From positions 1 through 64,000 of IMG/VR virus record IMGVR_UViG_3300001567_000262: 64,000 nt of DNA, one strand, 5' to 3'. The position numbers and the translations under genes are program-made. This document shows, in pieces, positions 56,722-56,844 of this stretch. Source of the DNA: a virus. Within the stretch, counting starts at the first letter, position 1; every line of letters begins with the position of its first letter. The notes under the pieces are model-generated. The model saw nothing but the letters and a program-made list of their open reading frames with translations, did no database searches and had not been told where the DNA came from.

Positions 56722-56844
56722 TTAGTTGCAATTACAGTTCGTGCAACCAAAACACCATTTGCCCTTGCAGAACTCTTCCCAAATGTCCTCCGCGAACTCC
56801 ACACCACCAAGTTCCTTAAACACCGGGGCTTCGTATTTTTCCAT
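56722..56844 (-). CDS. 40-aa Cys-rich RiPP precursor peptide (absent from the ORF track)
   Basis: MEKYEAPVFKELGGVEFAEDIWEEFCKGKWCFGCTNCNCN; GGAGGTG RBS; YxxP leader motif; directly after the PqqD gene. Confidence 0.85.
   Translation of the reverse strand: MEKYEAPVFKELGGVEFAEDIWEEFCKGKWCFGCTNCNCN

Follow-up and report, generated by a model that had tools for sequence, protein, structure and literature searches.

In the window (the whole stretch of 64,000 nucleotides of viral DNA analysed here), a reading frame of only 40 codons lies directly behind a PqqD-family gene. Is this frame a real gene, and is its product the substrate of the radical SAM/SPASM (rSAM/SPASM) enzyme encoded beside it? 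We consider it quite probable that the ORF encodes a genuine, translated precursor peptide of an unnamed radical-SAM peptide-modification pathway, all chemical steps of which we infer.

The proposed precursor gene and its operon

The first-pass annotation had proposed a hidden 40-residue peptide at this site. Translation of the minus strand gave exactly this peptide, followed by a TAA stop codon. The coordinates were thus correct once the gene is read on the minus strand, from 56844 down to 56722; the plus-strand translation is unrelated. The composition also agreed, with five Cys (26, 31, 34, 37, and 39), two Trp (22 and 30), and three Asn (36, 38, and 40). The supposed absence from the ORF list was not real, as the peptide, here called P0002, is listed once the ORF minimum is set at 30 aa. 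With 148 ORFs of 30 aa or more in 14 kb of this region, a 40-codon ORF is not significant by itself, and its significance rests on conservation. The peptide start lies 22 nt after the stop codon of the PqqD-family gene. A 5-mer Shine-Dalgarno (SD) match precedes an in-frame start in 102 of the 141 unique peptides of the family (a raw count without a control). The features are collected in Table 1.

Table 1. Features of the peptide gene and its neighbours in the window
Feature	Position	Strand	Basis or remark
RtcR-like (CARF-AAA+) sigma-54 activator, divergent	58547..60313	+	domain and family scans
Sigma-54-type promoter TGGCAC-N5-TTGC	58331..58345	-	read in the sequence, 82 nt upstream of the rSAM start codon
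Radical SAM/SPASM enzyme, 356 aa	57179..58249	-	Pfam Radical_SAM and SPASM
Discrete PqqD-family protein, 102 aa	56867..57175	-	Pfam PqqD, E 1.5e-10
Shine-Dalgarno box GGGAGG	56851..56856	-	read from the sequence, 6 nt before the ATG
Precursor peptide gene P0002	56722..56844	-	40 codons and TAA; translation, homologue searches, alignment
Leader box 1, residues 4-9, Y-E-x-P-x-F	56818..56835	-	alignment A1; retained in the sister family (alignment A4)
Leader box 2, residues 15-25, (M/V)-x-F-x-x-E-(I/V)-W-E-E-F	56770..56802	-	alignment A1; AlphaFold2
Core, residues 30-40, W-C-F-G-C-T-N-C-N-C-N, at the C-terminus	56725..56757	-	alignment and locus comparison; near-invariant
Stem-loop, strong, no T-run	56649..56703	-	folding energy; begins 19 nt past the peptide stop
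Amidohydro_2 and GNAT fusion, 404 aa, type-1-specific tailoring gene	55372..56586	-	domain scan, locus comparison
AsnRS-like class II aaRS paralogue, 378 aa, accessory	54249..55385	-	family scans, locus comparison
Alpha/alpha-toroid protein, 281 aa	53422..54267	-	AlphaFold2, pLDDT 92.6
B12-binding radical SAM gene, broken	52107..53419	-	two frameshifts, in an A6 run (~52770) and an A5 run (~52680)

All genes of the operon lie on the minus strand, in the order rSAM/SPASM, PqqD, peptide, stem-loop, Amidohydro_2-GNAT, AsnRS-like, toroid, and B12-binding rSAM. The sigma-54-type promoter presumably drives the operon, including the peptide gene, and the divergent RtcR-like activator is its presumed regulator. 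No RtcR-like activator was found beside the cluster in any other examined locus. A sigma-70-like match (TTGAAA, 17 nt, TACATT; 9 of 12 positions) lies at 56861-56889 on the minus strand, inside the end of the PqqD gene and just upstream of the peptide gene. It matches the consensus weakly and might provide extra transcription of the precursor.

The 90 nt after the peptide stop fold at -36.5 kcal/mol (z = -5.6). A z below -2 was also found just after the peptide stop in 47 of 67 distinct homologous loci, whose sequences at this place are unrelated. The terminator scan of the window did not call this stem-loop as a terminator. It is likely an intra-operon attenuator or an mRNA stabiliser, a role that would raise the precursor mRNA relative to the enzyme mRNA.

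The cluster forms an island of 36-42% GC within DNA of 55-58% GC. It sits in an IMG/VR provirus record of 133 kb and is prophage cargo. In other loci the B12-binding rSAM gene is a single ORF of 435-473 aa, and the copy in the window is split into three frames. The frameshifts, at 52660-52790, may be real mutations of a pseudogene or homopolymer sequencing errors. With this gene frameshifted in the provirus, the local pathway may be incomplete.

Conservation of the peptide

A word-indexed search of 5.8 billion proteins returned 17 homologues of P0002, of 40-62 aa, with E values from 1e-13 to 1e-6. Scans with back-translated patterns found 32 loci in species genomes and 35 in metagenomes. In all, about 70 loci encode homologues. 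They come from at least nine phyla of anaerobes (Bacillota, Bacteroidota, Planctomycetota, Spirochaetota, Fibrobacterota, Desulfobacterota, Acidobacteriota (Aminicenantes), Riflebacteria, and Omnitrophota), which live in the gut, rumen, sediments, and digesters.

The peptides share one layout: a leader with two boxes, the second of them acidic, a short spacer containing Gly, and a tail of 11 residues at the extreme C-terminus. The alignment of the 17 homologues (A1) shows no variation at Tyr4, at Pro7, or in the final 11 residues, and the tail consensus WCFGC(T/S)NCNCN is almost identical across the nine or more bacterial phyla. No strict association was seen between the core variant (Thr or Ser) and the cluster subtype among the compared loci. 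The proposed five-Cys motif C-x4-C-x2-C-x2-C-x-C does not describe the family, as Cys26 is confined to a small subclade that consists of the window, Desulfamplus (L019), L067, and L076. The family frame has four Cys, C-x2-C-x2-C-x-C, and one terminal residue. A "GG" cleavage site in the leader was also considered and was dropped because Gly13-Gly14 is not conserved in the alignment.

The codons of the core were compared in 30 distinct DNA versions. All synonymous forms are used: TGT and TGC occur at 15:15, 6:24, 13:17, and 12:18, and AAT/AAC and the GGN codons are mixed. Only one residue varies: Thr is replaced by Ser, for which both TCN and AGC codons occur. As the core otherwise changes only synonymously, the data point to purifying selection on the translated minus-strand product, and the overlapping plus-strand ORFs are excluded. 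Judged by this codon pattern, P0002 is a translated, strongly selected coding sequence.

The searches for this family, here called type 1, relied on patterns derived from the core, so the invariance of the core is partly ascertained. A search anchored on the toroid (alignment A2), in which the peptide was not used, recovered the same core in four loci (L034, L044, L060, and L062). Divergent tails were also found. Locus L061 has two tandem divergent precursors (L061:201-485 and 449-673), one of them of a rare third type, and the profile matches P0043 and P0051 also have variant tails. The divergence in L061 makes the core near-invariant rather than absolutely invariant. Another locus with two precursor genes, L071 (5202-5390 and 8454-8627), has each of them behind its own PqqD gene. 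The long proteins P0020 (2231 aa), P0053, P0060, and P0075 match the peptide profile in many stretches, all within the leader part; we suspect acidic low-complexity repeats.

Linkage with the putative maturation genes

With the proteins of the window as tblastn queries, the rSAM was found at every one of the 32 genome loci and at 31 of the 35 metagenome loci, and the remaining four loci are cut by contig ends. A lack of homologues near SPASM genes, the outcome that would speak against a precursor, was checked for, and the result was decisively the opposite. A PqqD-family gene lies between or beside the rSAM/SPASM and peptide genes in the type-1 loci that reach far enough upstream; where tblastn missed it, ORFs of 91-95 aa in that slot match Pfam PqqD. 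The same operon surrounds the peptide wherever the type-1 contig is long enough. The peptide is therefore what is expected of a precursor in a pathway of rSAM/SPASM and RRE type, namely an adjacent, co-oriented short ORF whose linkage to rSAM/SPASM and PqqD-family genes is kept in relatives, as had been proposed. No transporter or exporter, leader protease, or immunity gene belongs to the conserved gene set across the examined loci.

The three Cys of C37-x3-C41-x2-C44 and the seven SPASM Cys of the rSAM are invariant in 18 orthologues. This enzyme would be the first maturase of the peptide, and the PqqD-family protein would be the leader-binding RRE. Tyr4 and Pro7, the fixed residues of the Y-x-x-P box to which the first-pass annotation assigned RRE binding, do not vary, as would suit recognition of the leader by the RRE.

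Seven type-1 loci (L005, L025, L029, L034, L044, L082, and L086) have a variant cluster, with an LVIVD beta-propeller, an unknown protein of ~430 aa, and a second radical SAM of ~500 aa in addition. The amidohydrolase in these clusters lacks the GNAT domain.

A sister family with the same leader

A profile search that read every protein of a library of 1.84 billion proteins gave 61 matches, including type 1, many peptides of a second type, and a few tails of the third type. The type-2 peptides have the type-1 leader boxes and the tail CxQCSxCHGC(R/K). Type 2 is larger than type 1, spans Bacteria and Archaea, and occurs in at least 85 species genomes, its hosts including Thermoplasmatota, Bathyarchaeia, Methanoperedens, ANME-1, DPANN archaea, and CPR bacteria. 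Alignments A1 and A4, in which one set of leader boxes goes with either of two tails, show the two-part build of a precursor.

Among the 80 type-2 loci, a homologue of the rSAM/SPASM of the window was found in 51 (230-290 bits) and the toroid in 46-47. The amidohydrolase-GNAT, AsnRS-like, B12-rSAM, and creatininase genes are absent from all 80. Since type 2 shares the rSAM/SPASM and the toroid without the tailoring genes of type 1, the minimal set is the peptide, the rSAM/SPASM (with PqqD), and the toroid. A typical type-2 operon (L102-L181, e.g. L110:8399-14969) contains rSAM/SPASM, PqqD, peptide, in some cases a TPR-MBL protein of ~1000 aa, toroid, AsnB-like enzyme, an unknown protein of ~600 aa, and a GT4 glycosyltransferase.

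All that the two cores share is the frame C-x2-C-x2-C-x(1-2)-C with a single residue after it. In place of the Phe, Gly, Thr, and Asn of the window, type 2 has Arg/Lys, Gln, Ser, His, and Gly. The first-pass annotation had paired the Cys with Asn, Thr, or aromatic residues. This pairing finds no support, because type 2 shares the leader, the rSAM/SPASM, and the toroid but not those residues, so that Cys-to-Asn, Cys-to-Thr, and cyclophane links cannot be the common reaction. The comparison makes a common reaction of the Cys themselves a better reading than links specific to Asn or Thr.

Relation to known peptide systems

All three peptide types are without a matching Pfam or NCBIfam model, the PADLOC scan of the peptide gave no family, and a search of the ESM Atlas returned only an unnamed cluster of 96 members. 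Literature searches on the cores of the two types and on the enzyme combinations of the cluster yielded nothing relevant. The archaeal Crp system (PMC13692751) is different, with a large-protein substrate.

The nearest solved structure to the rSAM is the sactisynthase SkfB (E 3e-14). The best-scoring curated rSAM/SPASM families are GeoRSP (TIGR04303; 164.7 bits, cut-off 400) and ACGX (TIGR04340; 145 bits), then AhbD and SbtM (TIGR04082; 133 bits, cut-off 350). The scores with other models were 88.6 bits for MftC (cut-off 265), 83.5 for StsB (625), 68 for PapB (340), and 59.9 for SkfB (300). As the enzyme lies far below the cut-off of every curated family, its chemistry cannot be transferred from a known enzyme. 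Matches of the rSAM to pVip models in PADLOC were discounted as generic.

The sactipeptides (subtilosin A/AlbA, SkfA/SkfB, and thurincin H) resemble the window system in the short leader-plus-core peptide, the regularly spaced Cys, and an rSAM with a full SPASM domain. They differ in several respects: here the putative RRE has a gene of its own (PqqD), the Cys are at the extreme C-terminus, the core is invariant, the toroid and a putative carboxylate-capping enzyme are obligatory extras, and neither a protease nor an ABC transporter belongs to the conserved set. The StsB and SkfB scores likewise keep the maturase outside the sactisynthase models. The SCIFF/ranthipeptides (CteB, PapB) and the NxxC peptides (NxxcB) are also conserved Cys-rich peptides of ~45 aa from anaerobes, whose rSAM/SPASM enzymes make beta- or gamma-thioethers. 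NxxcB joins Cys to Asn (PMC9389541), and the core of the window contains N36-x-x-C39. At the matching positions the sister family lacks Asn, which argues against Asn as the acceptor common to both families. The lack of a model match for the peptide and the low PapB score place the system outside the SCIFF/ranthipeptides.

Mycofactocin (MftA/B/C/E) shares with the window system a short precursor, an invariant extreme C-terminus as substrate, and a discrete PqqD-family chaperone with an rSAM/SPASM. A creatininase-family gene (MftE-like fold) occurs in eight type-1 clusters, and the core is as invariant as that of a cofactor precursor. Unlike in mycofactocin, the tail is Cys-rich and ends in Cys-Asn rather than Gly-Val-Tyr, no dependent oxidoreductases are linked, and the distribution is sporadic and mobile; the MftC score is also far too low. 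As to SbtM, GeoRSP, and ACGX, which are the closest curated families, the scores are far below the cut-offs (350-400), and the peptide has neither selenocysteine nor ACGX repeats; GeoRSP and ACGX are themselves uncharacterised. The peptide does contain the Gly-Cys target motif of SbtM (Gly33-Cys34). Bufferins are metallophores with Cys-derived thio-oxazoles made by MNIO enzymes; they are reported to be widespread ribosomal peptides whose conserved Cys become metal ligands (PMC11626156). A radical-SAM route to such a product would suit strict anaerobes. The window cluster has no MNIO or DUF692 enzyme and no linked metal-stress genes, and the likeness is an analogy only.

Precursors that serve rSAM/SPASM-RRE pathways are thus a known kind; what appears to be new here is the family, together with its invariant tail, the toroid partner, and the alternative capping modules. 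An unannotated ORF of 123 nt becomes the defining substrate of a peptide-modification family without a Pfam or NCBIfam model. A tail that hardly varies at all is unusual for RiPPs, and such constancy suggests a product under strong constraint. Three hypotheses follow from the comparisons: Cys-centred rSAM chemistry, an obligatory toroid partner, and three non-homologous caps for the C-terminal carboxylate.

Likely course of maturation

In the proposed mechanism, the PqqD-family protein would bind the leader and hand the tail to the rSAM/SPASM enzyme, whose auxiliary clusters would act on the four framed Cys. We think that thioether cross-links of the sacti- or ranthi-type, possibly running back onto box 2 as a hairpin, are the single most likely chemistry, and we hold this view tentatively. 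Thioether formation on a cluster-bound Cys is the commonest outcome for enzymes of the rSAM/SPASM type (PMC9389541). As four Cys crowd a tail of only 11 residues, leader box 2 may supply the acceptors, the hairpin turning around the conserved Gly spacer. Of the links first suggested (ranthipeptide, sactipeptide, or cyclophane), the thioether part is kept as the most likely, and the cyclophane part loses ground because the sister cores have no conserved aromatic residue. SbtM converts Cys or Sec in a Gly-Cys motif into a thio-oxazole (PMC9204691). Gly33-Cys34 is invariant in type 1, and type 2 has Gly-Cys at its last Cys. An SbtM-like oxidation of Cys to thio-oxazoles would therefore be a serious alternative, if a rather unlikely one. 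Other chemistry makes up the rest.

The toroid protein would carry out a second step common to the whole superfamily. Its presence in type-1 and many type-2 loci suggests that it is the second conserved partner of the peptide. A Foldseek structure search returned only generic class II terpene cyclase, TED, or prenyltransferase-beta barrels, with TMq of 0.6-0.69. A Zn-ligand triad as in LanC or the prenyltransferases was also considered and is unsupported, since Cys218 is not conserved in the sister family.

The genes around the toroid point to a last step at the C-terminus. Of the 47 type-1 loci covering both the toroid and the B12-rSAM, 32 contain the AsnRS-like gene without a methyltransferase and 13 a class I methyltransferase without the AsnRS-like gene; none has both, and two short contigs have neither (raw counts, with shared ancestry ignored). 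The AsnRS-like gene occurs only in clusters whose core ends in Asn. In type 2, an AsnB-like PP-loop enzyme adjoins the toroid in 44 of 47 toroid-bearing loci, and it was found in 0 of 79 type-1 loci. Both AsnA/AsnRS-like and AsnB-like enzymes adenylate carboxylates. Asp and Glu are absent from the type-1 and type-2 cores, so the sole carboxylate of the core is the C-terminus. This carboxylate would then be capped by the AsnRS/AsnA-like adenylating enzyme in the window, by a SAM methyltransferase, or by the AsnB-like enzyme in the sister family. Its neutralisation, whether by amidation, cyclisation, or methyl esterification, is probably a conserved step. Eight of the 13 clusters of methyltransferase type also have the creatininase-family gene. 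In these loci (L007:13551-14954, L021:13517-14868, and six more) the creatininase-family gene and a small class I methyltransferase follow the B12-rSAM, and all of them lack the AsnRS-like gene.

Mobility and copies without the enzymes

The cluster is mobile: it is prophage cargo in the window and lies between defence-type genes in L010 and L011. In L010 (Syntrophomonas/Anaerovorax lineage; the same in L011), one flank carries AbiGi and TIR-domain genes, and the other carries an OLD-type nuclease (AAA_15 and TOPRIM) with a UvrD helicase, a Gabija-like pair (flanking regions L010:6818-8630 and L010:16387-20113). This looks like a defence-island setting. A reading of the cluster itself as a defence system was considered and not adopted: such flanks were noticed in this one lineage, and the PADLOC scan showed no membership.

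Some copies stand without the enzymes. One of them, P0016 (60 aa, 9932-10114), has the same tail and belongs to the complete phage genome L066 (IMGVR_UViG_3300028028_000007; 117,752 bp, terminal repeats, 65% GC). No homologue of the rSAM/SPASM or the toroid was found anywhere in this record, and the ten ORFs neighbouring P0016 have no Pfam match. Type-2 orphans occur in five small CPR/DPANN genomes (L137, L141, L165, L171, and L172), among housekeeping genes (GluRS, LMW phosphatases) and with no nearby maturase. Three of the five genomes have no rSAM match at E <= 1e-10, and the other two have only an rSAM of 31% identity, outside the examined locus. The peptide may thus also act unmodified. 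The orphans are the main evidence for a modification-independent role or for exploitation of the enzymes of a host. The prophage location and the phage orphan also mean that phages possibly use the pathway or interfere with it.

Nature of the product

What the mature peptide does was weighed against the conservation and linkage data. The invariant tail, and a conserved gene set that includes no exporter, protease, or immunity gene, argue against a typical bacteriocin. We believe that an agent with a conserved target, a signal, or a stress-related or metal-binding molecule is somewhat more likely than a classical bacteriocin.

The peptide could nevertheless be the precursor of a classical secreted bacteriocin of the sactipeptide or ranthipeptide type, a weapon given to the host by the prophage, which we regard as unlikely. 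The cluster is indeed carried by a prophage, within an island of low GC, bacteriocin clusters on prophages have been documented (bioRxiv 10.1101/2020.10.01.322628), the structure nearest to the rSAM is a sactisynthase, and the four thioethers of thurincin H run to Asn, Thr, and Ser (PMC5682303). Yet bacteriocin cores usually diversify, and this core is nearly identical over at least nine phyla. The missing secretion, protease, and immunity functions and the sister family in Archaea and tiny CPR/DPANN genomes also speak against a weapon of this kind.

A much wider picture can be drawn for the precursor reading, though we think it quite improbable as a whole. The system might be an ancient Cys-tail modification system across Bacteria, Archaea, CPR/DPANN, and phages, with a metal-binding or cofactor-like product and a capped C-terminus, and it might be an oxygen-independent radical-SAM counterpart of the thio-oxazole metallophores. 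Phages and episymbionts that carry only the precursor would then feed on or jam the maturation enzymes of the host.

It is very unlikely that the peptide is no substrate at all and serves unmodified as a Cys-rich metal- or Fe-S-binding peptide, be it an electron carrier, a metallochaperone, or a scaffold for the neighbouring iron-sulfur enzymes. The C-x2-C-x2-C spacing does resemble the cluster motifs of ferredoxin type known from textbooks, the tail is invariant, and orphans lie among CPR housekeeping genes and in a complete phage without the enzymes. Against this, the gene lies directly behind that of a PqqD-family peptide chaperone, a hallmark of substrate delivery to rSAM/SPASM enzymes, the conserved leader boxes are set apart from the tail, and an adenylating enzyme or a methyltransferase is linked to the cluster (the type-1 exceptions being the two short contigs). 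The AlphaFold2 model of the peptide has no confident fold (mean pLDDT 65), with residues 19-26 as the sole helix. It gives no knuckle or ribbon and places the Cys tail at pLDDT 54, in a model that leaves metals out and rests on a shallow alignment; it is weak evidence for a flexible substrate rather than a metal-knuckle mini-protein.

Finally, short ORFs are plentiful in the region, but there is practically no chance that P0002 is an untranslated chance ORF and that the real gene is a longer overlapping plus-strand ORF (56355-56819 or 56701-57054), a reading already refuted by variation at the third codon positions of the minus-strand frame and by more than 60 homologues that retain the frame, the stop position, and the SD box.
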